From: Spirochaetaceae bacterium
GTDB lineage: Bacteria > Spirochaetota > Spirochaetia > Treponematales > Treponemataceae
Direction of reading: 5' to 3'
Length of the DNA: 35,689 nucleotides
Assembly: GCA_031272345.1 (NCBI GenBank)
Contig: JAISTZ010000146.1
Coordinates: 1 to 35,689 of the forward strand
The position numbers and the translations under genes are program-made. Position 1 is the stretch's first letter, and each line of letters begins with the position of its first letter. Shown in pieces: positions 2,421 to 30,668 of this stretch. The notes beneath the pieces are model-generated. The model was not told where the DNA came from. It saw only the letters and a list, made by a program, of their open reading frames with translations, and ran no database searches.

Positions 2421-2428
2421 GGGGCGGC

Positions 2429-3679: not shown

Positions 3680-3692
3680 CGGGGCGAGTATA

Positions 3693-4511: not shown

Positions 4512-4550
4512 GGAACTAGTGTATACTACAATCGGAAGGATTGCAACACC

Positions 4551-6573: not shown

Positions 6574-6583
6574 GGAGTAAGTT

Positions 6584-6835
6584 ATGGGACGTAAAAAAGG
6601 CGGCAGCGGCGCAAAAAACGGGCGGGATTCCAACCCCAAGAGGCTCGGGGTAAAAGTATACGGCGGTCAAACCGTAAGCGCGGGGTCGATCCTGGTGCGC
6701 CAGCGGGGCACAAGGATTCATCCCGGCGCTAACGTCAAGCGGGGCAGGGACGACACGCTCTTTGCCACCAGCCCCGGCACGGTGGTGTATCACGACCGCA
6801 TGGGAAGGAAGTACGCTTCAGTAACCCTGCCGTGA
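6584..6835 (+). CDS. rpmA: 50S ribosomal protein L27.
   Basis: [24 protein letters not shown]... is canonical mature-type L27. TAAGGAG lies upstream of the ATG. Confidence 0.95.
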
Positions 6836-7995: not shown

Positions 7996-8570
7996 AGCTC
8001 GCGGTTCTGGGGGGCAGCTTCAACCCGCCCCACATCGGGCACCTGGCCCTGGCGGACGAAGCGGTCCTGTCCCTGGGGTACGACAGGGTGCTCTTTGTGC
8101 CCGCCAGGGTGCGGCCCTTAAAGGACATCAGCCCCGGAGCGGACGACAAAGACAGAATCGCCATGACCGCCCTGGCGATCGAGTCGAACAGGGCCTTCGG
8201 CCTGGAGACCTGCGAGATGGAACGGGAGGGCCCCTCCTTCACCTGGGACACCCTCCTCTTCCTTGCCCAAAAATACCCCCTGGAGGGAAAAATCGGCTTC
8301 ATCCTGGGGGACGACCTCATCGAGAGCTTCCCCCGGTGGCGGAACTACCGGGACATCCCCCGGGCGGCAGACCTCATCCTGGCCCGGCGGACCGCGGAGC
8401 CCGTGGAGGTCCCCTTTCCCCACATCCCCCTGGGGAATCCCCTCGTGCCGATCTCCTCGTCGGACATCCGGGAGCGGATCCGCGCGGGAAGGGCCTGGCG
8501 GTACCTTGCGGGAGAACGGGTTTCGGAGTATATTATCAGGGAAAAGCTGTATGGATACGGAGCTATTTAA
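7992..8570 (+). CDS. nadD: Nicotinate-nucleotide adenylyltransferase.
   Basis: The GTG start overlaps the obg stop as GTGA. It carries GGSFNPPHIGHL (the (H/T)xGH motif) and ISSSDIR near the C-terminus. Confidence 0.9.
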   Translation: MKLAVLGGSFNPPHIGHLALADEAVLSLGYDRVLFVPARVRPLKDISPGADDKDRIAMTALAIESNRAFGLETCEMEREGPSFTWDTLLFLAQKYPLEGKIGFILGDDLIESFPRWRNYRDIPRAADLILARRTAEPVEVPFPHIPLGNPLVPISSSDIRERIRAGRAWRYLAGERVSEYIIREKLYGYGAI

Positions 8571-16624: not shown

Positions 16625-16832
16625 CGCCGTTTTGCTCGATAAGGGTATAAAGTGTCTGACCGAAAGCATGGGTCTTTTGGAGGCGGAGCAGTTTATCTAT
16701 GTGCTTTTAAGCCAGCCCTTTGACTATACGGAATGGCGCAGGAAGTATTTGTTTGCCGGTATGACGGTTGACGAAATCAGCGACGCCGCCGACAAGTATT
16801 GCGCGGAAAATCCGGAAAAGGCCGCAGTATAG
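16614..16832 (+). CDS. Small protein downstream of and overlapping the PIN gene, a putative cognate antitoxin or partner.
   Basis: ATG at 16614 inside the track ORF 16557..16832. It overlaps the PIN gene by 11 nt. The 72-aa product is MTNNAVLLDKGIKCLTESMGLLEAEQFIYVLLSQPFDYTEWRRKYLF.... No family recognised. Confidence 0.55.
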   Translation: MTNNAVLLDKGIKCLTESMGLLEAEQFIYVLLSQPFDYTEWRRKYLFAGMTVDEISDAADKYCAENPEKAAV

Positions 16833-16849
16833 GCTGTCCGGGCGTCTAC

Positions 16850-16880
16850 ACACGGGGCGCCGACGCATGCGCCTGGCGCC
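16850..16880. repeat. Right copy of the imperfect direct repeat flanking the low-GC patch.
   Basis: ACACGGGGCGCCGACGCATGCGCCTGGCGCC. It has the same ACACGG and CATGCGCCTGGC core as 14837-14871, and GGCGCC...GGCGCC form imperfect palindromic arms. Confidence 0.5.
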
Positions 16881-16923
16881 AGCAGACCTTGCTTTTTTCC
16901 CCGCCCCGGCCTATCATGGGCGT

Positions 16924-17976
16924 ATGCAGAACGAGGGCTTTAACAAGGTTTCCGGGAACCCGGCCGGGGCTGGGGCGCTCGTCAAAACCGCGCCGGATTC
17001 TTCCCCCAAGACTTCTCCCGAAAGCATATACCGCAGGGTGGCAAAGTTTTTGCTCCTCATCGGCGTGGACGAGGCCGCCAAGGTCATGTCCCGGCTGGGG
17101 GAGGAGCAGACGGAAAAAATCATCCCGGAGATCGCCGGGATAAAGCGGGTGGACCCCGCCGAGGCCGCGGGGATTCTGGAGGAATTCCAGACCCTCCTGG
17201 AGCGCTCCAGGGAGGCCGGCGGGGTGGGCGCGGCCAGGGAGATCCTTGAAAAAGCCTTCGGGGCCGAGCGGGCCCAGGCGGTGCTGGAAAAGGCCGCCCC
17301 CTTCCACGAGGGCAAGCCCTTCGAGTACCTGGCGGATTTTGACGGGGACCGCATGGACCTGCTCCTCCGGGAGGAGTCCCCGGAGGTAAAGACCCTGGTG
17401 CTTTCCAGAATCAAGCCGGACCTCGCCGCCGCAACCATCAGCCGCCTCCCGTCCCGGGAGAAGACCCTCATCGTCAAGCGGCTGGCAAAGATGGGCCCCG
17501 TGCTGCCGGAGGTGCTCAAACAGGTGGACAAGCGCCTCCAGGAAAAATCCCTCACCCTGAGCGCTGACCGGTCGGACAAGATGGACGGGGAAAACGCCCT
17601 GGCCCAGATTCTCCGGCGCATGGACCCCGAGGCCGGGCAGGTCATCCTGGAGTCCCTGGAACGGGATTCCCCCCAGGCGGCGGCCAGGCTGCGGGAACAG
17701 TTGTTCACCCTGGACGACGTGGCCCGTGTGGACGACCAGTTCATCCAGGAGGAGCTGGCGGCCATGGAGGACAGGGACGCGGTGCTCCTGATTGCGGGGA
17801 AACCCGAGGGCTTCCGCACAAAAATTCTCACCAACGTGTCCAAGGGCCGGGGGGACCGGCTCCTGGAGGACGAGCAGATCAACAGGCCCTTCAGACGGGA
17901 GGACTGCGCCAGAGTCACCTCGGAATTTCTGGGGCGGCTGCGGAACTTTCACGCGGGAGACGGGGAATGGGTGTAA
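16924..17976 (+). CDS. fliG: Flagellar motor switch protein FliG paralogue.
   Basis: ATG at 16924 inside the track ORF 16768..17976. It has FliG middle and C-terminal domain patterns: AKFLLLIGVDEAAKVMSRL, and LFTLDDVARVDDQFIQEEL...LLIAGKPEGFRTKILTNVSKGRGDRLLED. The start is uncertain because there is no SD. An in-frame ATG at 16867 is an alternative. Confidence 0.8.
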   Translation: MQNEGFNKVSGNPAGAGALVKTAPDSSPKTSPESIYRRVAKFLLLIGVDEAAKVMSRLGEEQTEKIIPEIAGIKRVDPAEAAGILEEFQTLLERSREAGGVGAAREILEKAFGAERAQAVLEKAAPFHEGKPFEYLADFDGDRMDLLLREESPEVKTLVLSRIKPDLAAATISRLPSREKTLIVKRLAKMGPVLPEVLKQVDKRLQEKSLTLSADRSDKMDGENALAQILRRMDPEAGQVILESLERDSPQAAARLREQLFTLDDVARVDDQFIQEELAAMEDRDAVLLIAGKPEGFRTKILTNVSKGRGDRLLEDEQINRPFRREDCARVTSEFLGRLRNFHAGDGEWV

Positions 17977-19295
17977 AAATCAAGCCGCCCCTGGCAGCGC
18001 TGGTCCTGCTCGCCCTGGGGTTGAGCCTTGGGGCCCAGGCCGGGGACGACCCAAGCCGGGACAGGGACGTGATCCGCTACGGGCTGGATTCCGAAATCAT
18101 CACCCTCCTGGGCACATTGGGCAAGGAAGAATCCATCAAATACAAGGACGACATCCTCCTCCTCTTCCGGGACGCGGGGAACAGCGCCCTCAGGGAGGCG
18201 GTCATCGGGTATTTCACGGCCTTCAAGGACGACTCCCTCAAGAAGGACGCCCTCGCCGCGCTGGAGGACCCCTTCGGGGAAAAGAATTCCACCCTGAACC
18301 TGTGGTTCAAATACATCGCCGAGATCCGCCTCAAGGAAGCGGCGGCGGGCCTGCGCCGCATCCTCTCGGAGGGCTCCGGGGAATACCTCGACGGGGCGGT
18401 CCCTGCCCTGGGGGAAGCGGGCGGGCCCGGGGACGGGGCCTTCCTCCTGGACTACATGGACAGCAACGACGTAACCGCCGGGCAAAAGCAGGCCCTCATG
18501 CGGGCGGTGTCCAAGCTGGCCTCCCCGGACATCGCCGGAAAGCTCACGGAGATCGCCGGGGACGACAACGAGAACACCTACGTGCGCATGTACGCCGCCG
18601 AAGCCCTGGGGTCCCTGGGGGACGAACAGTATGTGCCCCTCCTGGCGGGGTTCTACGACCACAGTGATCCCGTGTTCCGCGCCGGGGTGGTGCGGGCCCT
18701 GTCGTCCTTCGGGGACAACAGGGAAGCCCAGGCCCTGGTTTTGCAGGCGATTCGGGACAGCCACTACCGGGTGCGCCTCGAGGCGATCGGGGCCGCAAAA
18801 AAGATGAAACTCAAAAAGGCGGAACCCTACCTCCTCGCGCGGGCGGAAAACGACCCGGAGGCGCAGGTGAAATACGCCGCCTACGGCGCACTGGCGGCCC
18901 TGGGGACAAAGGAAGGGGAAAACTTTCTCCTGGGCGTCCTCAGGGGCGAAAAAAACTCCGACGCCGCCAGAACACGGGCGGCCGCTGCCCTCCTGGAAGG
19001 GGGAATCGCGGTCAAGGAGGTGGCCGCCGCGGCGGAGGCAACCCTGAGGGACGACAGGCAGAAGAACCTGCGCTACAGCCTGGGCAAGGAGTTCGCCAGG
19101 GTGAAGAATTCCGATTTGGCGGGCATTTGCGGCCAGTACCTTGCCCACCAGGACGCGGCCACCAGGGGCACGGGCCTGGACATCTTCGCCAGGGGCCGCT
19201 ACCCAGGCGTCCTGGACGCGGTGAAGGCTATCGGGGCGGACGAGAAGGGCGGAACCCTTGCGGCAAAGGCCCGGCGCATCCTGGAGGAGCACTAA
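17967..19295 (+). CDS. Secreted HEAT/PBS-lyase-type repeat protein.
   Basis: The signal peptide is MGVKIKPPLAALVLLALGLSLGAQA. Repeated units of the form ..VR..AA.ALG.LGD....P.L...L.D.D..VR occur several times. It overlaps the fliG stop by 10 nt. Confidence 0.8.
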   Translation: MGVKIKPPLAALVLLALGLSLGAQAGDDPSRDRDVIRYGLDSEIITLLGTLGKEESIKYKDDILLLFRDAGNSALREAVIGYFTAFKDDSLKKDALAALEDPFGEKNSTLNLWFKYIAEIRLKEAAAGLRRILSEGSGEYLDGAVPALGEAGGPGDGAFLLDYMDSNDVTAGQKQALMRAVSKLASPDIAGKLTEIAGDDNENTYVRMYAAEALGSLGDEQYVPLLAGFYDHSDPVFRAGVVRALSSFGDNREAQALVLQAIRDSHYRVRLEAIGAAKKMKLKKAEPYLLARAENDPEAQVKYAAYGALAALGTKEGENFLLGVLRGEKNSDAARTRAAAALLEGGIAVKEVAAAAEATLRDDRQKNLRYSLGKEFARVKNSDLAGICGQYLAHQDAATRGTGLDIFARGRYPGVLDAVKAIGADEKGGTLAAKARRILEEH

Positions 19296-19330: not shown

Positions 19331-20686
19331 TTATTGCGGGAAGAACCGGGTGGAAGCTTCAACCTTGGTCAGATGGATGGTGTCGTTTTTGCAGCGCCCG
19401 ATGAAATCCTCCAGGGACATTTCCTCGCCGTTTTCAAACACCACCCCCTGGAACCGGCCTGAGGCGTCAAAGTAGGGAAAAATCACCGCGCACCGGGAGA
19501 AAAACCGCACCGGCGGCACGGAATTGTCGGACTCCCTCACAGCCGCCAGGTAGAACTCGTCGGGCCGCATCACCGCGAGCACGTAGAGGAGGGGGTACAG
19601 CCCCCCGGCGGGATACCCCGCGTCTTTGATGTGGGTGGTTTCATCCGCCAGGGCGAAGGGCTCGTAGACCACGTCCACCCCTGGGATGAACCCCCGCTGG
19701 GACCTCCCTGTTTTTGCCGCGGCCGCCGCTGAGGCAAGATTCCGGGTCCAGTCCAGGGAAAAGGAGATGTTGTACCTTTCGGCGATTCCCCCCTGGTACC
19801 CGCCGGGCTTGTAGGCCACGGTCGGCCTGGTGAGGGGGGCGAGCATGGTGTACCCCTGGGTGATGGGGGCCACGAGTCCGTCCACAATCCACTTGAGGAA
19901 TCCCGCGTCGGAGAAGAAGAGCTTGTTCCCCTGGAGTTCCCCCTCGGAGCGGGGGCGTTTTTCCCCGGTCAATATCGAAATGGGTTCCCCGGTTTCGTCG
20001 TAGCAGGCGTCCTTTGCCGGGACAAAACGCCTGGCGTTGCTCCTGATGACGCCGATCATCTGGGCGCAGCCCTCGTAGAGGGACGGGGAGGCCCCGGCGT
20101 ACTGCCAGGGGATCGTGGGAGTCCACTTTTGTATGTCCTGGAAGGATGCGGTGTAGAGCCGCTCAAAGGGGACTCCGGTTTCAACCCCCCTGGCCGCCCT
20201 CGCGCCGAAAATCACGAGCTCCCCGTCGCAGCCCTTTTTCCCCGGGGTGAACCGGGCAAACACCTGGCGGTCCCCGGCAAAGTGAATCACCACGGAGAGG
20301 GGCCTGCCCGTGGCGCTGTCCCTGGTGAGGATCCAGCCCCCGGGATTATCCGCGGTGAACACCGCGTCCATCTCGGAGAAGATCCCGTCGTCCGAGTAGA
20401 CATCCAGCTTCACCACTTCCCTGGGCGCGACGATCACGTCAAAGACGCCGCCGCGCTCTTCCAGGCGCACCTGGAACACCTCGCCCCGGTCCGTCCGGCG
20501 CTCCTCGGGGGGCCGCCCCCGCAGCTCCTCCAGGGGCAGGGTGAACCAGTCCGTCAGGTTCCTGCGCACACCGGCGGATTCCGGCAGGGCCTGTGCGCCG
20601 GAAAATTGGGCAGCCAGGGCCGTCCCGCACAGAATCAGGACCGCCGCGGGGGCGATCAGCTTCAGGGGCATCGTTTTGGTCATCAT
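19331..20686 (-). CDS. Secreted hypothetical protein (451 aa).
   Basis: The ATGATG start is preceded by AGGAG. The signal peptide is MMTKTMPLKLIAPAAVLILCGTALAAQ. Codon usage is host-like. No family recognised. Confidence 0.8.
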   Translation of the reverse strand: MMTKTMPLKLIAPAAVLILCGTALAAQFSGAQALPESAGVRRNLTDWFTLPLEELRGRPPEERRTDRGEVFQVRLEERGGVFDVIVAPREVVKLDVYSDDGIFSEMDAVFTADNPGGWILTRDSATGRPLSVVIHFAGDRQVFARFTPGKKGCDGELVIFGARAARGVETGVPFERLYTASFQDIQKWTPTIPWQYAGASPSLYEGCAQMIGVIRSNARRFVPAKDACYDETGEPISILTGEKRPRSEGELQGNKLFFSDAGFLKWIVDGLVAPITQGYTMLAPLTRPTVAYKPGGYQGGIAERYNISFSLDWTRNLASAAAAAKTGRSQRGFIPGVDVVYEPFALADETTHIKDAGYPAGGLYPLLYVLAVMRPDEFYLAAVRESDNSVPPVRFFSRCAVIFPYFDASGRFQGVVFENGEEMSLEDFIGRCKNDTIHLTKVEASTRFFPQ

Positions 20687-20905: not shown

Positions 20906-22666
20906 ATGAAAAAAATTTCTGGATGCACACTGATTATTGCATTGGTTCTGGGCTGCGCCGCGCTGGCCGTCGGCTGCGCCGGGTCGCCCGCAAGCGCCGC
21001 CCAGGAAGCGGTATCCGCGGCCAGGCCCAGGCCCGCTTATCAGGGAGATCCGGACGACCTCTACGGCCGCAGCGCGGTAGGCAAGAACGGCATCGTCGCA
21101 TCGGCAAAGCCCGAGGCGTCCCAGGTGGGAATCGACATCCTCAAAGCCGGGGGCAACGCGGTTGACGCGGCTGTGGCAACGGGCTTCGCGATCGGCGTGG
21201 TGGAACCGAACACCTCCGGTCTGGGCGGAGGCGGCTTCATGATCATCAAGCTCGTCAATATGCCCGAGGCTGTCGTCATCGACTTCCGCGAGATGGCCCC
21301 TGGCGCGTCTACCCCGGACATGTACGTAAAAGCCAAGGCCGCCGGCGTCAAGGACCCCACGGAAACGGGGGGCCTTTCATCGGGCATACCCGGAGACGTG
21401 AAGGGTCTGCTCTACGCCCTGGACAACTACGGCTCCAAAAAACTCGACCGCAAACAGATCATGCAGGGGGCGATCGACCTGGCTGAAAATGGCTTTGTCG
21501 TAACGTCGAACTTCCAGGGCATGATTCAGGACAACCTGGAGCGGATCAACCAGTATCCGGCAACGGCGAAGATCTACACCGACGACGGCCTTCCCCCCGA
21601 ACCGGGCACGGTCATCAAGAACCCCGACCTGGCCGCCACACTCCGGCTCATCGCGGACAAGGGCGAGTCCGTTATCTACAAGGACCTGGCCCAGGAAATC
21701 GCCGATGCCGTGCAGGCCGCGGGGGGCATCCTCACCGTGGAAGACCTTGCTAAATACGAAGTCAAGGTGCGGAAACCCGTCACGGGCACATACAAGGGCT
21801 ACACCATCATCTCCGTGCCGCCCGCAAGCTCCGGGGGAACCACGGTCATCGAAACCCTGAACATCCTGGAAAACATGGACCTTTCCAAACTGCGGCCCGC
21901 CTCCGCCCCGGCGGTGCACGCCTGGATTCAGGCCCTCCGTCTGGCCTTTGCCGACAGGGGCAGCTTCCTGGCCGACTCGGACTTCGTGGACGTGCCCCTT
22001 AAAGGCATGACGAGCAAGGACTATGCCAGGACCCTCTACCAGAAATTCGACCCCGCCAAGGCCATGCTCAGCGCCGCCGCCGGGGAGCCCGCCAAATACG
22101 AGAGCGGCTCCACCACGAGCTTCTCGGTGATGGACAAAGAGGGCAACATGGTCACGATCACCAAGACCATCAACTTCTTCTTCGGCAGCGCGGTGACCGT
22201 GCCGGGCCGGGGCTTCATCATGAACGACGAAATGGACGACTTCGTGACCACTCCGGGGCACGTACAGTCCGTTGAGCCCTACAAGCGGCCCCTGTCTTCC
22301 ATGACCCCCACCCTGGTGCTCGACCCCCAGGGCCGCCCGTTTATGACCCTGGGCTCTCCCGGCGCGACCCGCATCATCGCGGCGGTGGCCCAGATCATCT
22401 CCAACGTGGTCGACCACGGCATGACGATCCAGGAGGCCATCGACGCGCCCCGGTTCTTCGCCACAGCCTCGGGCCAGGTGCACATCGAGGGCCGCACACC
22501 CAGCGCCACCGTGGAGGGCCTCAGGAAGCTCGGCTACGACGTGAACGTTCACGCAGACTGGGACAACTACTTCGGCGGCGCCCAGGGCGCGTACTTCGAC
22601 CAGGACACCAAAACCCTGTACGGAGGCGCAGACCCCCGCCGGGACGGACACGCGAAGGCGTACTAG
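20906..22666 (+). CDS. ggt: Gamma-glutamyltranspeptidase family lipoprotein (GGT/CapD-like).
   Basis: AAGGAG lies upstream of the ATG. Lipobox-like LVLGCAALAVGCAG. GGT core motifs are present, including the autoprocessing and nucleophile site ESGS-TTSFSVMDKEGN and the C-terminal GGADPRRDG. Confidence 0.9.
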   Translation: MKKISGCTLIIALVLGCAALAVGCAGSPASAAQEAVSAARPRPAYQGDPDDLYGRSAVGKNGIVASAKPEASQVGIDILKAGGNAVDAAVATGFAIGVVEPNTSGLGGGGFMIIKLVNMPEAVVIDFREMAPGASTPDMYVKAKAAGVKDPTETGGLSSGIPGDVKGLLYALDNYGSKKLDRKQIMQGAIDLAENGFVVTSNFQGMIQDNLERINQYPATAKIYTDDGLPPEPGTVIKNPDLAATLRLIADKGESVIYKDLAQEIADAVQAAGGILTVEDLAKYEVKVRKPVTGTYKGYTIISVPPASSGGTTVIETLNILENMDLSKLRPASAPAVHAWIQALRLAFADRGSFLADSDFVDVPLKGMTSKDYARTLYQKFDPAKAMLSAAAGEPAKYESGSTTSFSVMDKEGNMVTITKTINFFFGSAVTVPGRGFIMNDEMDDFVTTPGHVQSVEPYKRPLSSMTPTLVLDPQGRPFMTLGSPGATRIIAAVAQIISNVVDHGMTIQEAIDAPRFFATASGQVHIEGRTPSATVEGLRKLGYDVNVHADWDNYFGGAQGAYFDQDTKTLYGGADPRRDGHAKAY

Positions 22667-22686
22667 CCCCGCGGTAACAGCGAACC

Positions 22687-22730
22687 ACACGGACCTCACG
22701 GACAACACAGTCCGTGCGGTCTGTGTTTTT
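22687..22730 (+). terminator. Rho-independent terminator after ggt.
   Basis: ACACGGACC-t-CACGGAC-aacaca-GTCCGTG-c-GGTCTGTGT followed by TTTT. The stem has 16 pairing positions, with one G-U pair and one 1x1 mismatch. Confidence 0.75.
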
Positions 22731-22745
22731 AAAGAATGAAAAGGA

Positions 22746-23303
22746 ATGAATATGAAGAAACTAGCGGTTTTCACGGCCCTTGCGCTGCTCCTGGGTTCCG
22801 CGCTTTTCGCCCAGACGCCGAAAGCGTTTGCGGACAGGCCCCTGCGGCTCACGTCCATCGGCCAGAGCGCGGACATCGAGATGGTGCGGGTGCTCCTTGC
22901 CAGGGCAAAATTCGACGCCAAATCCGAGCCGTTGATAAAGGCGTCCGACCTTAACGGCAGCGCCAAGACCCTGGTGCTCGTCATCGGCGGCAGCTCCAAG
23001 GGGCTGGGCGCGGCGGGCATCAGCGCGGAAGCGGAAATGGAGCGCGCAAAGGCCCTGGTGGCAAAGGCGAAGAGTCTGGGAATGAAAATCATTTCCGTGC
23101 ATGTCGGCGGGGAAGCCCGGCGGGGCACCCTCTCCGACGGCTTCATCAACTACGCGGTGCCCCAGTCCGACTACGTGATCGTGGTGTCCGAAGCCGACAA
23201 GGACGGGCTTTTTACGGCCCTCGCCGGGGGCGCGAAGATTCCCCTTACAAAGGTGGACAAGATCGCCCAGGTAGGCGCGCCCCTCACCGGCGCCTTCAAG
23301 TGA
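22746..23303 (+). CDS. Secreted protein of unknown function. From memory, possibly the family annotated only as a DUF (DUF6305).
   Basis: The signal peptide is MNMKKLAVFTALALLLGSALFAQ, with an alternative ATG at 22752. The mature ~160 aa have alternating beta/alpha character (LRLTSIGQSAD...TLVLVIGGSSKGLGAAG...MKIISVHVGGEARRG...DYVIVVSEAD). It is the first cistron of a tightly packed operon. Confidence 0.75.
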   Translation: MNMKKLAVFTALALLLGSALFAQTPKAFADRPLRLTSIGQSADIEMVRVLLARAKFDAKSEPLIKASDLNGSAKTLVLVIGGSSKGLGAAGISAEAEMERAKALVAKAKSLGMKIISVHVGGEARRGTLSDGFINYAVPQSDYVIVVSEADKDGLFTALAGGAKIPLTKVDKIAQVGAPLTGAFK

Positions 23304-23310
23304 GGCCCCC

Positions 23311-24585
23311 GTGTCGATAGAATTACTCTACTTTTTGGTGATGGTCGGCGTGTTTATTGTCTGCGCCTTCGCCCTGAAGCTTCCGGTGTCCCTTGCCATG
23401 CTGGCGGCGTCGGAGATCACCCTGCTGATTTCCGGGAACGGAATCGGCGTGAGGCACCTGGTCGAGGGCTCCTTCTCGTACCTGGACACGATTCTCGTGA
23501 TCGCCACGGCGATGATCTTCATGCGGACGATTCAGGAAAGCGGCGCCCTCGACGCCCTGAGCGTCGTCATCATCAGGCGCTTCAGGAATATGCCGGCGCT
23601 GCTCCTCCCCCTGCTCATGATCCTCTCGATGTTTCCGGGCATGATTACGGGCTCGTCCACCGCGTCGGTGCTCACCGCCGGGGCGATCGTCTCGCCCGTG
23701 CTGATCACCCTGGGGATGCCCCGGCACACCGCGGGGGCGTTCATCGCCATGGCGGGAATCCTGGGCATGATCGCCCCTCCGGTGAACATCCCGGCGATGC
23801 TCATCGGCGGCGGAATCGACATGCCCTACGTGGGCTTCGGAATCCCCTTGCTCCTCATGGTGATGCCCCTGGCGGTCCTGTTTTCCTGGACCTTCGGGCT
23901 TAAATTCGTCAAAAAAATGTCCTGGGAGGACCTGGCGCCGAAACTCAACACGGAAATTTACGCCCGCTACGGCGCGCGCCTCTTCATCCCCATCGCGGTC
24001 GTGGTGGCGTTGATGATTCTGGCGCAGGTTTCGCCGAGCATCTTCGGCTGGGGCCTCCCGGTCATCTTCCTCCTGGGCGCGGCGAGCGGGGTCTTCACCG
24101 GCAAGCGCTTCAACGTGCTCAGGGCGGCCAAGGCCGCGCTCCACGACTGCCTCCCGGTGGCGGGGATCCTCGCGGGGGTGGGCATGTTCATCCAGGTGAT
24201 GACCCTCACCGGCGTGCGGGGGTTCATCGTCGTGAACGCCCTGAGCCTCTCCTTCAACACGGCCCTGCTCTACCTGGCGATGGCGGTCACCATACCGCTC
24301 TTCGGCGCGGTTTCGGCCTTCGGGGCCGCGAGCGTCCTGGGGGTGCCCTTCATCCTGGCCCTGCTGAACCAGGACCAGATCATCACCGCGGCGGCCCTGT
24401 CGCTCATCGCGTCCCTGGGGGACTTCATGCCCCCCACGGCGCTCTCGGCGATTTTCGCGGCCCAGGTCATCGGCGAGCCCAGGTATTCTTACGTGCTCAA
24501 GAAGCTCATCCTGCCGGGCCTGGTGATCATCGCCTGGGGGCTTGTGTTCATCACCTTCTCGAAGCAGCTTCGGGCCATATTATAG
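23311..24585 (+). CDS. DctM-like (TRAP large-subunit / ion-transporter superfamily) permease.
   Basis: The GTG start is preceded by GAGG, 7 nt after the upstream stop. The 424-aa product is polytopic. The motif MFPGMITGSSTASVLTAGAIVSPVL resembles the DctM GSS(A/T)A loop. No DctQ or DctP gene is present in the window. Confidence 0.75.
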   Translation: MSIELLYFLVMVGVFIVCAFALKLPVSLAMLAASEITLLISGNGIGVRHLVEGSFSYLDTILVIATAMIFMRTIQESGALDALSVVIIRRFRNMPALLLPLLMILSMFPGMITGSSTASVLTAGAIVSPVLITLGMPRHTAGAFIAMAGILGMIAPPVNIPAMLIGGGIDMPYVGFGIPLLLMVMPLAVLFSWTFGLKFVKKMSWEDLAPKLNTEIYARYGARLFIPIAVVVALMILAQVSPSIFGWGLPVIFLLGAASGVFTGKRFNVLRAAKAALHDCLPVAGILAGVGMFIQVMTLTGVRGFIVVNALSLSFNTALLYLAMAVTIPLFGAVSAFGAASVLGVPFILALLNQDQIITAAALSLIASLGDFMPPTALSAIFAAQVIGEPRYSYVLKKLILPGLVIIAWGLVFITFSKQLRAIL

Positions 24586-24594
24586 GAGGCGGCA

Positions 24595-24738
24595 ATGTTT
24601 GTGATTTATTTGATAATCGACGCGGCGATTCTTGCCCTGGCGGTTTGGAATTTCGTGACGGAAAAGGACTGGAAGGCCCAGGCCGCCATCGCCATGGTGA
24701 CAGTCCCCCTCCTTTTGCGTCTGCTCCTGGTAAAGTGA
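24595..24738 (+). CDS. Untracked 47-aa membrane peptide.
   Basis: My own translation is MFVIYLIIDAAILALAVWNFVTEKDWKAQAAIAMVTVPLLLRLLLVK. TAGGAGG (24582-24588) lies 6 nt upstream of the ATG. The gene sits 9 nt after the permease stop, and its stop (24736-24738) falls inside the SD of the next gene. It is shorter than the ORF-track cutoff. Confidence 0.55.
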   Translation: MFVIYLIIDAAILALAVWNFVTEKDWKAQAAIAMVTVPLLLRLLLVK

Positions 24739-24744
24739 GGCACT

Positions 24745-25866
24745 ATGAAAAAATATCACATCTCGGCAATCGTCATCGCCATAGCCGCCCTTGCGGCGGC
24801 CTTCGTTTCGGGGAGGGAATTCCTTGCCCACAGAAGGCCCGAGACGATTTTTCCCGGGCCTGGGGTCACTGAAAAGAGGATGCTTTCGGACTGGTACCCG
24901 GCCCTGAAAGGCGGCCGGGGGGACACGGAGGTCTACATATTCAGGGGCGACGAAGAGGGCGGCTCGATCCTCGTACTGGGGGGGACTCACCCCAACGAGC
25001 CCAGCGGCTATCTGGCGGCCACGGTTCTGGTGGAAAACGCCTCGGTGAGCAAGGGAACCCTCTACGTGATCCCCAGGGCGAACAACTCCGCCTTCACCCA
25101 CAACGACCCCCAGGAGGGGTCCCCCGCGTCGTTCACCATCAAAAAGAGTGACGGCGACGAGCGGGTGTTCCGCTTCGGCTCCAGGGCGACGAACCCCCTG
25201 GACCAGTGGCCCGACCCGGAGGTGTACATCCACGCCTCAAGCGGCCAGCACCTTTCGGGGAACGAAACCCGCAACCTGAACCGGGGCTATCCCGGCAGGA
25301 CCAACGGCACCTTCACGGAAAGGGTCTGCTACGGAATCACGTCCCTTATCAAGGCCCAGAACATCACCATGACCATAGACCTGCACGAGGCGTCCCCGGA
25401 ATATCCGGTGATCAACGCGATTGTCGCCCACGAGCGCGCCATGACCCTGGCGTCCTACGTGGTGCTGGGGCTGGAAATCCAGGACATCAAAATCGGCCTG
25501 GAGCCTTCCCCCAGGAACCTGCACGGCCTCACCCACCGGGAACTGGGGGACGCCACGGACACCTTCGCGGTGCTCATGGAAACCGCCAACGCATCCCAGG
25601 GGAGAATCCGGGGCAGGACCGACGCGGCCCTGGCCCTCACGGGAAAGGACACGTGCTATGTGAAGGCGGCGGAACTCGGGCGGCTCTATGTGCCCTTTGA
25701 CGAAAGGGGCCACCCCATCGAGGAGCGGGTCGGCAGGCACCTGGCGGGAATCGCCGAATTCGCCTTCGCCCTGGGAACGGAATACCCCGACAAGGAGATT
25801 CTCATCGAGGGAATCCCGGACTACTACGAGTTGCAGGACAATGGCCTGGGCGCTTACCTCAAATGA
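24745..25866 (+). CDS. Membrane-anchored M14-like zinc hydrolase (succinylglutamate desuccinylase/aspartoacylase AstE/AspA family).
   Basis: The N-terminal anchor is ISAIVIAIAALAAAFV. Zinc and catalytic motifs are GGTHPNEPSG (HxxE), NRGYPG and DLHEA. Confidence 0.8.
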   Translation: MKKYHISAIVIAIAALAAAFVSGREFLAHRRPETIFPGPGVTEKRMLSDWYPALKGGRGDTEVYIFRGDEEGGSILVLGGTHPNEPSGYLAATVLVENASVSKGTLYVIPRANNSAFTHNDPQEGSPASFTIKKSDGDERVFRFGSRATNPLDQWPDPEVYIHASSGQHLSGNETRNLNRGYPGRTNGTFTERVCYGITSLIKAQNITMTIDLHEASPEYPVINAIVAHERAMTLASYVVLGLEIQDIKIGLEPSPRNLHGLTHRELGDATDTFAVLMETANASQGRIRGRTDAALALTGKDTCYVKAAELGRLYVPFDERGHPIEERVGRHLAGIAEFAFALGTEYPDKEILIEGIPDYYELQDNGLGAYLK

Positions 25867-25870
25867 GGCC

Positions 25871-27109
25871 ATGGTTTGCGCCGCGGCGGCTCTGGCGGCT
25901 CTGATTCTGGTTTTTGCCCTTCTTGCAGCGGAAAATCTGCTCGTGGGTGCGGCGCGGAAGAAGCTTTCCCTGGTGATTCTGGTGAACGGAACCCGGGGAA
26001 AGTCCACGGTCACCAGGATGCTGCACTGCCTCCTGCGCGAAGCCCCGGGGTTCGCTCCCGTGTTCGGCAAGACCACGGGCAGCGCCGCGATGCTCCTCCT
26101 CCCCGACGGAACCGAAAGACCCCTCCGCCGGATCTGCGGCGGGAACGTGCGGGAACAGCGGAACTGCCTCATCGGGGCCGCCTTTTCCGGGGCGAAGACC
26201 CTGGTGTTCGAGTGCAACGCCGTAAAGCCTGAACTGCAAAAGATTACCGCCCGATGGCTCGTCCCGGACATCATGGTGGTAACGAATGTGCGGGAAGACC
26301 ACGCGGACGCCCTGGGGAAACCGGAACAGGCGGCCCGGGTGTTCGCCCAGGTTCCGCCCAAAAACAGCGTCCTCATCACAAGCGACCGCGCCTTTGCGCA
26401 CATCTGGGAAGAGGAAGCCCCACGGCGCGGCTACCGCCTGTGTTTGCACTCCCCGGAGGAAGCCCTTGCCGGGGACCGCTTCCCGGAAAACACCGCCTGT
26501 GTGCTGGCCGCGGCAGCGTGTCTGGGGCTGGACCGCCGGAAGGCGGAAGGGGCCGCAAAAAACTACGCCCCTGACCCCGGCGAATTCACCGTCCTTTCAT
26601 GGAAGGAGGACTCCCGGAGCGGCCCGTCCCCGGCGGGCGCGGGGAGGACCGTCTTTTTCGCGGACGCCCGCTCCGCAAACGACACGGCCTCCACGGACGC
26701 GCTCCTTCAGGCAGCCGAAGGGACCCTCGAAGGCGCGGGGGCGCGACGCGGAAGCTGCGCCGGGCGGGTGTTCCTCCTCGTGAACCGGGAGGACAGGCCC
26801 GACAGGACCGCCGCCTTTGCGGAGTACCTCGCCGCCCGCTGCACCGGAAGTGACGGCTGCGTCGTGCTGGGCCGCGCCCCGGCTGCTTTCAGGAACAAGC
26901 TGAAACGCGCGGGGCTGAAGCCGGTCTACCTGGGGGCGGGCGCGAAAAGCGCCGACATCGACAGGGCCTGGGACGCCGCGCTGCCGGCCGCTCCGGAGGG
27001 GGACCCGGTCTTCGTGTTCGCCCTGGGGAACTACGGGGGCGCGGGCTCCTGTGTCACAACCTATCTTGCGGAAAAACGGGTCCTCCATGACGTTCGCGTT
27101 CAGGCCTGA
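25871..27109 (+). CDS. pgsB: Poly-gamma-glutamate synthase PgsB/CapB-like Mur-ligase-family enzyme.
   Basis: The ATG at 25871 is 4 nt after the upstream stop, with an alternative ATG at 25841. There is an N-terminal TM, then VNGTRGKSTVTRML (B. subtilis PgsB has INGIRGKSTVTRL, from memory). Further matches are GKTTGS, EC.AV.PE, VVTNVREDH, FPEN, APDPGEF and SANDTAST. Confidence 0.85.
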   Translation: MVCAAAALAALILVFALLAAENLLVGAARKKLSLVILVNGTRGKSTVTRMLHCLLREAPGFAPVFGKTTGSAAMLLLPDGTERPLRRICGGNVREQRNCLIGAAFSGAKTLVFECNAVKPELQKITARWLVPDIMVVTNVREDHADALGKPEQAARVFAQVPPKNSVLITSDRAFAHIWEEEAPRRGYRLCLHSPEEALAGDRFPENTACVLAAAACLGLDRRKAEGAAKNYAPDPGEFTVLSWKEDSRSGPSPAGAGRTVFFADARSANDTASTDALLQAAEGTLEGAGARRGSCAGRVFLLVNREDRPDRTAAFAEYLAARCTGSDGCVVLGRAPAAFRNKLKRAGLKPVYLGAGAKSADIDRAWDAALPAAPEGDPVFVFALGNYGGAGSCVTTYLAEKRVLHDVRVQA

Positions 27110-28301
27110 AATCTTCATCATCCTGGGAATCCTCCTCAGCCTCGCCTGTTCCGAGGGGCTGAATCTGTCCCCGGGGGGCGTGGTCGTGCCGGGCTACGTG
27201 GCCCTCTGCCTGAACCGGCCCCTGGAGCTGGCCGTCACCCTGGGGGCGGCCCTTGCCGCGTTCTTCACGATAAAAATAGCGGGCCGCTTCTTTTTTCTCT
27301 TCGGCAAGCGCAGATTCGCCCTGTGCCTGCTTTCGGGACTCGCCTGGGGCCTCCTGTTCCGCGCCTTCGCCCCAGCCCCCGGCGCGATTCTGCGCATCGG
27401 GGGATTCCTCATTCCGGGAATCCTCGCATCGGAAATGACCCGGCAGGGCGCGCTCAAGACCTTCGCGGCGATGGCGGCGGTGTCGGCCGCCGTGTTTCTG
27501 GCGGGAACGGGCCTGACCCTGCTTTTGGGGGCGCAGGAACGGCGCGCGGAGGCCGCGTATACGGAAATCCTGGAGGGCCTGCACGGGCGGAACAGGGCGG
27601 GAATCATCGGGGAGGAATACACGGCCCTCACCACGACTCTGGGAAGCCCTGAGGCAAAGCTGCTCCAGCTCGACCCGGCTGCGGCGGGCCTCATGGCGCG
27701 GCTCCTGAAAGACGCGGGAGTCCGGCGGGGCGCAAAAATCGCGGTGAACGCCTCCGGTTCCTTTCCGGGCTTTGTCTTTGCATCCCTCGCCGCGTGCCGG
27801 ACGCTGGGGCTGGACGCGGTCCTCGTGGTGTCCCTGGGGGCGTCCAGTTACGGCGCGAACATTCCGGGCTGGACCGTGGCGGACATGCTCTTTGCGGCCT
27901 CTGCCATGCCCGGAGCTCCCCTCGCCGGGGTGGAATTCGCGGCCATAACCCCCGGCGGCTCAGGGGACGCGGGGAAGGAGCTGGACCGGGCGGAACTGGA
28001 GCGGGCGGCGCTTTTGGCGCAAAGTCACGGCGTGCCCTTCGTTGTTCCCGCGAGTCTGGACGAAGCCCTGGCCCTCCGGGAGGCGGCCTTTAAGGACTGC
28101 GCCGTGCTGGTGAACGTCGGCGGAAATCACCCCTCAACCTTCGCCAGCGAGGAGCTCTCCCGCATGGGCGGCCTCATCCGTCCCACGGACGCATACGCGG
28201 GGCAGGGCCTCGTCGGGAATTTTCTTTCACAGGGGAAGCCGGTCATTCAGGTGCTGAATGTCAGGCAGCTTTTCAGGCAGTTCGGCATAGGGAAGGACTG
28301 A
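27087..28301 (+). CDS. pgsC: Fusion protein: an N-terminal PgsC/CapC membrane domain plus a C-terminal ~250-aa domain. The C-terminal domain possibly belongs to the 'poly-gamma-glutamate system protein' family.
   Basis: ATG at 27087 overlaps pgsB by 23 nt. The N-terminus MTFAFRPEIFIILGILLSLACSEGLNLSPGGVVVPGYVAL... and ...GGFLIPGILASEMTRQGALKT parallel B. subtilis PgsC (..GLVVPGY.., ..GIIVPGLIAN..QKQG, from memory). After a last TM (about residue 150) comes a soluble domain: IGEEYTALTTTLGSPEAK...AVNASGSFPG... Confidence 0.8.
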   Translation: MTFAFRPEIFIILGILLSLACSEGLNLSPGGVVVPGYVALCLNRPLELAVTLGAALAAFFTIKIAGRFFFLFGKRRFALCLLSGLAWGLLFRAFAPAPGAILRIGGFLIPGILASEMTRQGALKTFAAMAAVSAAVFLAGTGLTLLLGAQERRAEAAYTEILEGLHGRNRAGIIGEEYTALTTTLGSPEAKLLQLDPAAAGLMARLLKDAGVRRGAKIAVNASGSFPGFVFASLAACRTLGLDAVLVVSLGASSYGANIPGWTVADMLFAASAMPGAPLAGVEFAAITPGGSGDAGKELDRAELERAALLAQSHGVPFVVPASLDEALALREAAFKDCAVLVNVGGNHPSTFASEELSRMGGLIRPTDAYAGQGLVGNFLSQGKPVIQVLNVRQLFRQFGIGKD

Positions 28302-29120
28302 CCAGTCCAGGTCGAGGCGGGAATTTTTTACCAGGAGCCGCATCGCCTCAAGGTGGAACGCGGCCCGCTTCCACAGGGGGTATTCGGGATGATTGAACTG
28401 GTCGATGTCCCCCGGCGCGTCCGGGGCCTGGGCGGGATTCGCGGTTTCGATCAGAAAGGCCCCAGCGCCGGTCCTGTCGCCCCATTCCCGGTGGGAAAAT
28501 CCCGTGTTCGCCTCCGCCGACGCCTCCAGGTTGAACAGGAAGCCGGGCATGAAATCCTCGTCCTCCAGATCCAGGATGGTCTCAGCCGCGGCGGTCAGGT
28601 TTTTGGGATTCGCCACGATGTGCCAGGCGAGGCCGTCGGGGGCGGCCTCGTGCAGGTCGAAGGCGATGTCGACGTGTTCCGTGCGGAGCAGGTTCATCAC
28701 GGCCAGGGCGATTTCCCCCGCGAGGCCCCGGCCCGGGACGCCCGGATAGGCGCGGTTGATGTTGGTTTCAGGCCCGTCAACGGAGCCCGCCGCGGAACCG
28801 TCTGCGGAAATCAGGCGCGTCCCCCCGGTGTTCAGGGCGGGAATCACGATGATGCGACCCCGGTTCACCCTCCCGGTTTCGGCGAGGACAGAAGCGGCGG
28901 CGATTCCCCCGATTTCGTTCCCGTGGGCGCCCCCGGCCGCGAACATCACCGCCCCGGGCTTTCCCGATTCCAGATAGTACACCGCAACATCCCCGGGGCC
29001 GCCCGCCAGGGACGGAAGATAGTCCGAAAGCCTCGCGCTTGTGCGTCCCCCTGTTTTGGGGGTCGCGCAGGAGGCGAGGACGAGAACGGCAAGAACCGCA
29101 AAAACCGATGGCCTGGGCAT
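28227..29120 (-). CDS. Lipoprotein, the second M14-like zinc hydrolase (AstE/AspA family).
   Basis: The lipobox is VLVLASCATP. Motifs are GGAHGNEIGG (HxxE), NRAYPG and DLHEA. Its 3' end overlaps the convergent pgsC-fusion gene by 75 nt. Confidence 0.8.
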   Translation of the reverse strand: MPRPSVFAVLAVLVLASCATPKTGGRTSARLSDYLPSLAGGPGDVAVYYLESGKPGAVMFAAGGAHGNEIGGIAAASVLAETGRVNRGRIIVIPALNTGGTRLISADGSAAGSVDGPETNINRAYPGVPGRGLAGEIALAVMNLLRTEHVDIAFDLHEAAPDGLAWHIVANPKNLTAAAETILDLEDEDFMPGFLFNLEASAEANTGFSHREWGDRTGAGAFLIETANPAQAPDAPGDIDQFNHPEYPLWKRAAFHLEAMRLLVKNSRLDLDWSVLPYAELPEKLPDIQHLNDRLPL

Positions 29121-29138
29121 GTCACTATCAGCGTGTCC

Positions 29139-30668
29139 CTAGGGCAGGGGCCGGGCGTGGACTTCCCGGGAAAATTCCCCCGCCACTGCGGGGTCGTGGC
29201 GGGAATAGGCGGCCACGGCAAAGTAGTACATCCTGCCGTTTTTGAGACCCGTCAATCTGAGGGAAGTTTCCTTTCCCGCGCTAACCGGGGAGGGCCCCTC
29301 CGCCGCCGCGGCGCCCAGGTATTCGCCGGGCCTTTCGCCGTAGTACACGTAGTAGCCCCCCACAGCTTCGTCCGGGGAGATGGACCAGGAGAGGGACACC
29401 GCCCCGTTTTCCGCCCGGGCTTGCACCGACGACGGGGGCAGGGGTGACACCTCTTCCCGCCAGGTAAGGGACACGGAGGTGACCGACGGGGAAATGCTCC
29501 CCGCGCCGTCGGGGTAGAGGCTGGCCCCGATCTGGAAATACCGGCCCCGCAGGTCCGGGAGGGGCTTCCCTGCCTCCACGGGGAACCAGGGCGGGTCGCT
29601 TTCGGTCCAGCCGAAGAGATGATCCCCGGCGCGGACGAAATACTGAATCGAGGTTTCATCGGGCGCGTCCTCAAGGCTCTCGAAGGACACCAGGGTTGCG
29701 CCGGGGGACGCGGTTATGGGGAGAGTCTCGAACCTGCCCCCGTCGATGCCGTAGATGTCGCAGTAGACCCCGTTGTTCCCCTGGGTATACCTGGTCTCGT
29801 CCACCCTGCCGGCGGGACGGCGGAGAATCCGCACCTCGTCGATGCACCCGGCAAAGGCCGGGCACAGTTCCAGGGGCGCCGGGGCCCCGAGGATGGGCTG
29901 GAAAATTTCGCCCCCCTCCCTGCCCGTGGCGGTCACGTAGCGCACGTCCTCGGTCCTGCCGTCGATGGCGTATTCCAGGAGCCCGGTCTCTTCGTCAAAG
30001 GAGACGCTGTGGTGGGCCCACTTGTCCGGGATGATGATTCCGCTGCTCCGCAGACCCATTTTTTCCATGGGCCCGGCGCTTCCGAAAAACACATTGAAGA
30101 ATTCCCATTCGAGCCTGTTGTTGCTGATTGCCGCGCTGATTTGCTGGTAGTAGGGGTAGTTCCGGGCTATGCGGGAGGACGACCAGGAGAGGACCGTCTC
30201 CCCGTTTTCCGCGATGGCCGGCTTGAGCCAGAATTCAATCGTAAAGGACCCGGCCGCGCCGGGGGAACCGAAGAGGGCTGAGGGCTTCCCCCTGACCGAA
30301 ATCCCCCCGCTTCCCTGGGCGAGGGCAGCGCCCTTTCCCATCAGAGCGCGGGAGGACCGCCTGGCTCCCGAGAAGGCCGCCTCGTAGTTTCCGGCCCTGT
30401 CCCCGAGGTCCCCTTCAAAGTCGAGCAATAAGTCGGTATAATCGGTGACGGACCGGGCGTTGGACGCCAGTTTCAGGCTCTGGTAGCCGAACTTGCCCAC
30501 CCCGGTGTCGATGCCGGCCGTGTAGGAGAGGGCGGGCCAGCCCTCTTTTCCGCCGAAGACCGCGGTGTGTTCCCGGGCTCCCAGGGGAAAAAGGAGAAAA
30601 AGCAGACCCCCAAGGGCTGCAAAAAGACCAATGAAGGATGTTTCTGTTTTATCTGACACTGCGCGCAC
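29139..30668 (-). CDS. Secreted or membrane-anchored protein with a LamG/concanavalin-A-like lectin domain and a C-terminal fibronectin type III-like domain.
   Basis: The GTG start at 30668 is preceded by GGAGGAAGGGG. The N-terminal hydrophobic segment is FIGLFAALGGLLFLLFPLGA. GSFTIEFWLKP...LEWEFFNVFF...WAHHSVSF...LLEYAIDG... is LamG-like. The C-terminal AVSLSWSISPDEAVGGYYVYYGE...LKNGRMYYFAVAAYS is FN3-like. The gene ends 18 nt upstream of the M14 lipoprotein gene. Confidence 0.75.
   Translation of the reverse strand: MRAVSDKTETSFIGLFAALGGLLFLLFPLGAREHTAVFGGKEGWPALSYTAGIDTGVGKFGYQSLKLASNARSVTDYTDLLLDFEGDLGDRAGNYEAAFSGARRSSRALMGKGAALAQGSGGISVRGKPSALFGSPGAAGSFTIEFWLKPAIAENGETVLSWSSSRIARNYPYYQQISAAISNNRLEWEFFNVFFGSAGPMEKMGLRSSGIIIPDKWAHHSVSFDEETGLLEYAIDGRTEDVRYVTATGREGGEIFQPILGAPAPLELCPAFAGCIDEVRILRRPAGRVDETRYTQGNNGVYCDIYGIDGGRFETLPITASPGATLVSFESLEDAPDETSIQYFVRAGDHLFGWTESDPPWFPVEAGKPLPDLRGRYFQIGASLYPDGAGSISPSVTSVSLTWREEVSPLPPSSVQARAENGAVSLSWSISPDEAVGGYYVYYGERPGEYLGAAAAEGPSPVSAGKETSLRLTGLKNGRMYYFAVAAYSRHDPAVAGEFSREVHARPLP

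Follow-up and report, generated by a model that had tools for sequence, protein, structure and literature searches.

A spirochaete locus that joins a PgsA-less poly-gamma-glutamate-type synthetase to a widespread cassette with predicted roles in polymer turnover and uptake

The window analyzed here is a 35,689-nucleotide contig (JAISTZ010000146.1, positions 1 to 35,689) from a Spirochaetaceae bacterium (assembly GCA_031272345.1), and our subject is a locus of nine open reading frames (ORFs) at 20906-30668 with a predicted role in the synthesis of poly-gamma-glutamate (PGA). PGA is a capsule and virulence factor, a component of biofilm matrices, and an industrial polymer. To our knowledge, almost all that has been learned about its synthesis and degradation comes from Bacillus. 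An earlier interpretation made from the letters of the DNA alone, referred to here as the sequence-only reading, described the locus as a self-contained module. Our data indicate that its genes do co-occur across genomes but that they make up two separable modules, a synthetase (PgsB–PgsC–TIGR04332) and a cassette (GGT–DUF6305–DctM-like permease–47-amino-acid (aa) peptide–AstE-like hydrolase), and that the cassette has a much wider distribution than the synthetase. We consider it somewhat probable (approximately 0.58) that the cell makes PGA, trims the polymer extracytoplasmically from both ends, and re-imports glutamate. The observed basis for this reading is gene content, family assignments, motifs, the absence of a lid loop in the GGT, conserved linkage, and recurrent gene fusions.

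We found all nine ORFs at the coordinates that the sequence-only reading had given, and the close packing of the genes and the terminator that follows GGT were likewise re-found in place. After the GGT gene, six plus-strand cistrons follow one another closely. From the coordinates, the gaps are 7 nt (DUF6305 to permease), 9 nt (permease to small ORF), 6 nt (small ORF to the first AstE-like gene, M14a), and 4 nt (M14a to the PgsB-like ligase), and the ligase gene then overlaps the gene for a PgsC–TIGR04332 fusion by 23 nt. A second AstE-like gene, M14b, converges on this array from the minus strand.

Conservation and linkage of the two modules

Linkage was compared across approximately 170 related loci. 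A scan of one genome per Genome Taxonomy Database species found DUF6305 relatives in at least 529 species (over 2172 protein clusters), mostly Spirochaetota, with others including Acidobacteriota, Fusobacterium, Clostridiales/Bacillota, Propionivibrio, and Comamonadaceae; the window proteins were run by tblastn against the 80 best loci. A metagenome scan for the system protein (i.e., the TIGR04332 family) found 555 relatives, for which 80 loci were kept. Well over 100 independent loci, spread over several phyla, contain these genes together; their arrangement is not a matter of chance, and the co-occurrence in related genomes that the sequence-only reading called for is observed.

The cassette exists in two forms. 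The long form, GGT–DUF6305–DctM-like–small ORF–AstE-like, was found in 63 of the 80 DUF6305 loci. The short form (17 of 80) has the order DUF6305–AstE-like–GGT–AstE-like followed by an unknown protein of approximately 140 aa, an order that was read in six of the 17 loci. Short-form loci include L014, L023 (10001-15003), L031, L041, and L064, in which the GGT is approximately 43% identical to that of the window and no pgsBC genes are adjacent. One locus, L017, combines both forms, with three AstE-like and two GGT genes, and has a gene for a methyl-accepting chemotaxis protein (6411-8237) between pgsBC-sys and the cassette. Clustering of the genes around the cassette gave only lineage-specific synteny (genes for an aldo-keto reductase, an SbcD-like protein, an AMP-ligase, and a PRPP synthetase), and no further universal cassette partner emerged from it. 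In Rectinema-type loci (L021 at 6434-7777 and 10 others), a 447-aa protein beginning MCDT, with a weak match to PF03417 (Ntn-hydrolase), is encoded a few kb upstream of GGT and is followed by a conserved unknown protein of approximately 220 aa.

Among long-form cassettes with at least 10 kb of total flanking sequence, PgsB, PgsC, or the system protein is encoded within 10 kb in 9 of 30 loci; with at least 5 kb available on both sides, the synthetase lies within 10 kb in 5 of 23, so that the share is approximately 22–30%. For short-form cassettes with at least 10 kb of total flank, the corresponding count is 0 of 10. Seen from the synthetase, DUF6305 is encoded within 10 kb in 15 of 19 system-protein loci with at least 12 kb of total flank (approximately 80%) and in 12 of 14 loci with at least 16 kb. 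Furthermore, cassette genes directly adjoin the synthetase in all six sampled system-protein loci, three of which belong to distant lineages. The cassette may stand upstream, downstream, or divergent of the synthetase, and regulators, a chemoreceptor gene, or an insertion sequence (IS) element sometimes lie in between. Such varied order and orientation suggest selection on linkage rather than shared ancestry alone, which is the pattern expected of functional linkage.

Several of these arrangements can be compared with the window directly. A Spirochaetia genome (L001) has the same order as the window, and L004 has an all-plus-strand version of the array. In L005 and L006 the order is PgsB–PgsC–[system protein fused to AstE/DUF2817]–histidine kinase–response regulator–GGT–DUF6305–DctM–48 aa–AstE-like. 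In a Fusobacterium locus (L084), a histidine kinase and a DpiA-like response regulator, similar to the pair in L005 and L006, are encoded upstream of GGT. An IS element with a DUF772 transposase lies between the AstE-like gene and pgsB in L089-L091, from a wastewater or metagenome lineage, and an IS66-family element lies just upstream of GGT in L087.

Protein families of the locus

The PgsB-like ligase (25871-27109, plus strand; 412 aa) carries the motif LVNGTRGKSTVTR, with NGTRGKST as its P-loop, and has an N-terminal membrane anchor. It matches TIGR04012 with 189.9 bits across profile positions 6-376 of 380 (equivalog cut-off, 222.7 bits). The runner-up Mur-ligase families (MurC, MurF, and MurD) score 25 bits or less, so that TIGR04012 leads by approximately 165 bits and the proposed PgsB/CapB assignment holds over MurC-F, FolC, and cyanophycin-synthetase types. 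The product is a predicted ATP-dependent amide ligase and a divergent PgsB orthologue, not a clean equivalog match.

The next gene (27087-28301, plus strand) is one continuous ORF for a 404-aa fusion. Residues 11-136 (about nt 27117-27494) make up a PgsC domain that matches PF14102 with 92.5 bits (cut-off, 27) and TIGR04011 with 85.1 bits (equivalog cut-off, 96.45), in agreement with the PgsC/CapC match predicted for the N-terminal part of this product. Residues 169-402 (about nt 27591-28292), directly after PgsC in the same polypeptide, match TIGR04332 with 201.1 bits (cut-off, 100). The "extra domain" of the sequence-only reading is thus indeed fused to PgsC but is a family that already has a name, "poly-gamma-glutamate system protein", and is uncharacterized; the PgsB–PgsC–TIGR04332 trio is a unit already defined in databases. 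In the window fusion, the PgsC linker helix replaces the first 63 positions of the TIGR04332 profile, which form an anchor. The system domain stops just after the conserved LNVxxL…G motif and lacks a C-terminal tail of approximately 60 aa with a transmembrane (TM) helix that most homologues have.

Syntenic PgsB orthologues score 234.4, 336.8, and 375.9 bits, all above the TIGR04012 cut-off, and syntenic PgsC orthologues score 104-118 bits, above that of TIGR04011. Almost every family-conserved residue is retained in the window proteins: 34 of 35 conserved columns (i.e., those at least 90% conserved among orthologues) in PgsB, 18 of 19 in PgsC, and 30 of 31 in the system domain. We therefore attribute the sub-threshold scores of the window PgsB and PgsC to divergence and reject the idea that these are decaying genes. 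The fusion of PgsC with the system protein recurs independently in L104, at 34-38% identity, and the two are separate genes in 93 other loci. In L005 (8058-9953) and L006 (10001-11896), a 631-aa protein combines the system protein with a zinc hydrolase domain of the AstE/DUF2817 type at its C-terminus. Taken together, the fusions of the system protein to PgsC and to an AstE-like domain suggest that these proteins are physical partners.

The AlphaFold2 model of the system domain has a pLDDT above 90 over most of its length. A Foldseek search of the PgsC–system-protein model against the Protein Data Bank (PDB) returned nothing above a TM-score of 0.25, PDB sequences searched with a system-protein profile yielded no relative, and a PDB sequence search returned no detectable relative of PgsB or PgsC. 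The TIGR04332 domain matches no Pfam family, PGA_cap included, and a relationship between DUF6305 and the system protein was rejected at a profile-profile probability of 0.2%. No PGA_cap (PgsA) domain was found among the locus proteins and the other window ORFs scanned, as the sequence-only reading had anticipated. PgsBC without PgsA has been shown to make PGA when overexpressed in B. subtilis (PMC6029982).

The cassette begins with a GGT lipoprotein (20906-22666, plus strand) that scores 494.6 bits against TIGR00066 (cut-off, 357.85) and 527 bits against PF01019. Its N-terminus has a lipobox (…LVLGC/…AVGC), and its small subunit begins at an aligned TTS motif, which supplies the autoprocessing Thr nucleophile. 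The window GGT scores 368 bits with B. licheniformis GGT and 361 bits with E. coli GGT compared to 130 bits with CapD (3g9k), and a CapD-like identity was rejected on these scores. Of the "GGT/CapD-like" label given by the sequence-only reading, what stands is a genuine GGT that belongs to the lid-loop-negative Bacillus type. Lid-loop-negative enzymes are those in which a lid loop of approximately 12 residues is missing from the small subunit (PMC8062742). Compared with H. pylori GGT, the window GGT is missing 10 residues exactly at the lid loop (a spacing of 13 versus 23 residues), and it aligns without gaps to B. licheniformis GGT. Short lid spacing (11-14 residues) was found in 105 of the 112 GGT genes of the collected loci by a tblastn-based measurement. 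Gram-negative GGTs are normally lid-positive; in lid-loop-negative GGTs, from Bacillus, archaea, and extremophiles, the cleft is open and suits polymeric PGA, and grafting a lid onto B. subtilis GGT moves its preference away from PGA (PMC8062742). The lid-less form of the window enzyme points to a polymer rather than glutathione as its likely substrate.

Between the GGT and DUF6305 genes lies a terminator-like hairpin with a U-run (22687-22731, plus strand). The hairpin is interrupted and has 16 pairs (22687-22726), and the 82-nt terminator stretch folds at -32.3 kcal/mol (z = -4.59), with 0 of 200 shuffles folding as well. A simple terminator scan missed this element, and direct folding detected it, so that the claim of a strong terminator is upheld. 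GGT is found within the block in nearly all DUF6305 loci, and the gene belongs to the cassette despite the terminator.

The secreted DUF protein of the sequence-only reading is DUF6305 (22746-23303, plus strand; 185 aa), with 171.1 bits to PF19823 (cut-off, 25) across profile positions 3-154 of 154, and it is the hallmark protein of the cassette. Its signal peptide, MNMKKLAVFTALALLLGSALFA, is followed by Q. The family has the invariant motifs GQSAD, GGSSKGLGAAG, HVGGxxRRG, SD, and D153, and the window protein keeps 30 of 30 family-conserved columns. The AlphaFold2 model (pLDDT, 90.5) is a single flavodoxin-like alpha/beta domain in which the invariant motifs all lie at the C-terminal ends of strands and hence form one pocket. 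Foldseek of this model against the PDB gave only weak matches (TM-score of 0.5 or less) to alpha/beta proteins of a generic kind, led by SGNH/GDSL hydrolases. From the model, hydrolase activity and carboxylate binding are both possible roles. DUF6305 would not simply be the binding protein of a transporter since it persists in cassettes that have no permease.

The permease (23311-24585, plus strand; 424 aa) matches PF06808 (DctM) with 47 bits, a weak score that nonetheless spans positions 3-412 of 413, and TIGR02123 with 36.5 bits, in line with the DctM-like permease first proposed. It keeps 62 of 62 conserved columns, its gene comes after that of DUF6305 in every long-form locus, and its Fusobacterium orthologue is named "TRAP transporter large permease subunit" by the Prokaryotic Genome Annotation Pipeline (PGAP). 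Pfam and TIGRFAM scans found no match to DctQ or DctP among the locus proteins, and this DctM-type permease would apparently work without the classical TRAP partners. The small ORF that follows (24595-24738, plus strand) encodes the 47-aa peptide MFVIYLIIDAAILALAVWNFVTEKDWKAQAAIAMVTVPLLLRLLLVK. ORFs of 47-54 aa lie between the permease and AstE-like genes in all but one (L060) of 56 long-form loci and share two hydrophobic helices separated by a short charged loop and the ending …PLLLRLLMIK. This conservation spans spirochaetes, Fusobacterium, and acidobacteria, so the membrane peptide noted by the sequence-only reading recurs across phyla. The 47-aa ORF is a real gene, one whose Fusobacterium copy PGAP calls a "hypothetical protein", and its product is a probable small subunit of the permease.

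The last cassette gene encodes M14a (24745-25866, plus strand; 373 aa), and M14b (28227-29120, minus strand; 297 aa) is an accessory of the synthetase module. Against AstE_AspA_cat (PF24827), M14a scores 23.4 bits, under the Pfam cut-off of 25, and M14b scores 26.4 bits, over it. The best PDB matches of M14a are 2qj8 and 3cdx, of the succinylglutamate desuccinylase/aspartoacylase family, and M14b matches 3cdx (E = 1.4e-6). A hydrophobic anchor forms the N-terminus of M14a, and M14b has the lipobox LVLASC. The PDB matches and N-termini agree with the anchored hydrolase and the second M14-like lipoprotein of the sequence-only reading. M14a (109 orthologues) and M14b (64 orthologues) have in common the motifs GGxHxNE, RNLNRxYPG, DLHEA, GLxHRExG, and LxETxN, the first taking the form GGTHxNE across the 109 M14a orthologues. 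Both keep the HxxE…H zinc ligands, an NR carboxylate-binding motif, and a conserved Glu, which we read as putative carboxypeptidase-type zinc ligands, an Asn-Arg pair that binds carboxylate, and a catalytic Glu. An insert of approximately 55 residues is present in M14a. L001 and several termite-gut contigs have M14b in this convergent position behind the system-protein gene as well, and in L004 it stands in line before pgsB. In the window, the fusion gene and the M14b gene share 75 nt at their 3' ends in antiparallel orientation (28227-28301).

Beyond M14b, on the same strand and 18 nt upstream of it, lies a gene for a 509-aa LamG/FN3 secreted protein (29139-30668, minus strand; fn3, 33 bits; Laminin_G_3, 30 bits). 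The two genes probably form one operon in this genome. The LamG/FN3 gene was rejected as a module member, with no homologue in the 80 DUF6305 loci and one weak distant match in the 86 system-protein loci; the sequence-only reading had listed it with the system, but it is not conserved with either module. Divergent from the GGT gene, a 451-aa predicted secreted protein or lipoprotein without a Pfam match is encoded at 19331-20686 (minus strand), and at 16768-19295 (plus strand) a gene for a FliG-like protein (402 aa, with all three FliG domains) overlaps by 10 nt with the next gene, which encodes a 442-aa HEAT-repeat protein. The window has approximately 63% G+C and housekeeping neighbors (uvrC, obg, rplU/rpmA, a FliG paralogue, and a phosphoglucomutase gene), and the closest relatives of the locus proteins come from spirochaete metagenome-assembled genomes, several of termite-gut origin. 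A low-G+C island at 4923-5658 (50.6% versus approximately 63%) contains two overlapping minus-strand ORFs of 180 and 83 aa that resemble a toxin–antitoxin pair and lie just upstream of rplU, a small ORF, rpmA, and obg. ORFs 797-1609 (minus), 1647-2783 (plus), 2780-3736 (plus), and 3693-4799 (minus) have no Pfam match at E of 0.001 or less, and some of these four long ORFs in 797-4799 may be spurious given the high G+C. Rfam and tRNA scans of the window returned no matches.

A predicted route for PGA and its alternatives

In the reading that we favor, the membrane-anchored PgsB-like ligase would join glutamate by gamma-amide bonds at the cytoplasmic face of the membrane, with PgsC as its predicted integral-membrane partner. 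The TIGR04332 domain, which would face the periplasm after its TM helix, may fill the place of Bacillus PgsA, and the combined PgsC–system domain would hand the polymer to the periplasmic side. The lid-less GGT lipoprotein would then take gamma-glutamyl units off the free-amino end. M14a and M14b are predicted to be carboxypeptidase-like and to need a free alpha-carboxylate, and they would release free glutamate from the other end of PGA. AstE-like enzymes would be suited to freeing the C-terminal glutamate because, in chemical terms, this last residue of PGA is an N-acyl-glutamate, as is N-succinylglutamate, the substrate of AstE. DUF6305 may bind the polymer, or process or cleave it, at its conserved Ser/Arg/His-rich pocket, and the DctM-like permease with its 47-aa partner would re-import glutamate or short gamma-glutamyl products. 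Overall, the cell would produce an anionic glutamate polymer, control its size, and recycle it. Where a genome has only the cassette, the same genes would scavenge external PGA.

Several points weigh against this reading. We infer from sequence what the product is, what each enzyme does, which substrate is transported, how the proteins are oriented in the membrane, and which roles DUF6305, the 47-aa peptide, and TIGR04332 have. The window PgsB and PgsC both fall under their equivalog cut-offs, and none of DUF6305, the 47-aa peptide, and the system domain has an informative structural relative. The short-form cassette has no permease, and the strong terminator sets GGT apart from the operon. 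The synthetase is absent from the available flanks of 18 of the 23 long-form loci with at least 5 kb on both sides, which indicates that the cassette needs no neighboring synthetase. Conversely, the synthetase loci L118, L119, L137, L149, and L169 have no cassette nearby. Finally, the Fusobacterium locus of this type was read in Fusobacterium sp. MFO224, and PGA production is reported for F. nucleatum.

Some of these observations would also fit a cassette that is mainly a scavenger of external gamma-glutamyl compounds (environmental PGA, glutathione, or gamma-glutamyl peptides). The cell's own polymer would then not be turned over, and proximity to the PgsB–PgsC–system-protein genes would reflect a supply of glutamate at most. 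The cassette is the commoner of the two modules: of the well-flanked loci, 5 of 23 with the long form and 0 of 6 with the short form encode PgsB, PgsC, and the system protein nearby. Transcription of GGT may be separate, as its terminator suggests, and in some lineages an Ntn-hydrolase/peptidase-like gene lies upstream of GGT. We nevertheless regard scavenging as an unlikely main role since the cassette, variously ordered and oriented, lies within 10 kb of the synthetase in approximately 80% of synthetase loci with enough flank, since L005 and L006 encode a direct fusion of the system protein with an AstE-like domain, and since the lid-loop-negative GGT points to a polymer rather than glutathione.

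In another reading, PgsB, PgsC, and TIGR04332 could place gamma-glutamyl or other amino-acid tails on an acceptor (peptidoglycan, a lipid, or a protein) instead of making free PGA, with the hydrolases remodeling that product. The sub-threshold scores, the absence of PgsA from the scanned window ORFs, and a system protein that has neither a fold relative nor an assigned function would all be compatible with such a role, as would the textbook precedent of the Mur-ligase relatives FolC and MurD, which add glutamate to defined acceptors. We judge this improbable, more so than scavenging, given that the syntenic orthologues pass both equivalog cut-offs, that PgsBC alone is enough for PGA in B. subtilis, and that Fusobacterium, in which the locus type is present, is a genus with a demonstrated producer; F. 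nucleatum is the reported Gram-negative PGA producer (Candela 2009, cited in PMC3815933). Export of the polymer or its oligomers by the permease and the 47-aa peptide, aided by DUF6305, in place of the export role proposed for PgsA and PgsE, appears very improbable. Neither PgsA nor PgsE is present, and the permease and pgsB share a tight operon, but members of the DctM/ion-transporter superfamily are textbook secondary carriers of small anions, the permease and peptide are found mostly in loci without an adjacent synthetase, and some synthetase loci have no permease.

Beyond synthesis with two-ended trimming and re-import, a broader proposal can be made only tentatively, and we think it doubtful as a whole: that GGT–DUF6305–DctM-like–47 aa–AstE-like would be a complete, unrecognized system for PGA use or recycling in more than 500 species of Spirochaetota, Acidobacteriota, Fusobacteriota, Bacillota, and Pseudomonadota. 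DUF6305, with its flavodoxin-like fold, GxSxG-like motif, and invariant His, Asp, and Arg, would be a new extracytoplasmic PGA-binding or PGA-cleaving protein; the permease and 47-aa hairpin would be a new two-part transporter without DctP or DctQ; and TIGR04332 would replace PgsA and contact PgsC and an AstE-like hydrolase.

Our literature search found no paper describing DUF6305, the function of the system protein, the five-gene cassette, or the eight- or nine-gene arrangement, and the view that this combination is undescribed agrees with the literature searched. Single parts are already named by automatic annotation. How PGA leaves the cell and what PgsA does are unresolved in the field, and the locus bears on PGA handling outside Bacillus. 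This locus type is a natural PgsA-less system whose recurrent fusions hint at physical partners, and the widespread cassette gives testable predictions for DUF6305, the 47-aa peptide, and the AstE-like ectoenzymes. Our data suggest that spirochaetes, acidobacteria, and fusobacteria of guts, sediments, and sludge commonly make or consume PGA.

Comparison with known systems

The locus shares with the Bacillus PgsBCA(E)/CapBCADE systems a Mur-ligase-fold PgsB with an N-terminal anchor and P-loop, a small polytopic PgsC whose gene directly follows and overlaps that of PgsB, and a neighboring enzyme of the GGT family. Unlike those systems, it contains neither PgsA (the metallophosphatase-like PGA_cap) nor PgsE and has TIGR04332 instead, fused to PgsC. 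Furthermore, it has a dedicated permease, a small peptide, and DUF6305, and its host is a spirochaete and presumably diderm. In Bacillus, PGA is degraded by exo-acting GGT together with endo-acting PgdS. The window GGT is lid-loop-negative, as are the B. subtilis and B. licheniformis enzymes (BsGGT and BlGGT), whereas the NlpC/P60-type PgdS is absent at the locus and AstE-type zinc ectoenzymes are found instead, with the dedicated permease and DUF6305 added.

A close counterpart is in Fusobacterium sp. MFO224, which has the same eight genes in order (GGT–DUF6305–DctM–47 aa–AstE-like–PgsB–PgsC–system protein), an array in which PGAP annotates PgsB, PgsC, and the system protein by name. The window differs from it in that PgsC and the system protein are one polypeptide that is missing the C-terminal TM tail, and in that a second AstE-like lipoprotein converges on the operon. 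Fusobacterium and L005 also have a histidine kinase and response regulator pair, whereas the window locus has no two-component regulator.

Single components can be set beside better-known relatives. The permease matches DctM of the TRAP transporters (DctPQM) over its full length, but there is no DctP, TAXI, or DctQ gene in the block; instead, the permease gene is preceded by one for a 150-residue single-domain secreted DUF6305 and followed by that of the 47-aa peptide. M14a and M14b have the HxxE…H zinc ligands, NR motif, and conserved Glu of the N-acyl-amino-acid amidohydrolases AstE, AspA, and DoeB, although their similarity to them is very low (23-26 bits to the Pfam domain), and those are cytoplasmic catabolic enzymes whereas M14a and M14b are predicted to be extracytoplasmic from their signal anchor and lipoprotein N-termini. 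Phage PghP, a carboxypeptidase-A-related zinc enzyme, is known to hydrolyze PGA (PMC4497714), and the window locus likewise has carboxypeptidase-A-related zinc hydrolases. These belong to the AstE/AspA branch with no Pfam match to the PghP family, and unlike PghP they are a membrane-anchored protein and a lipoprotein.

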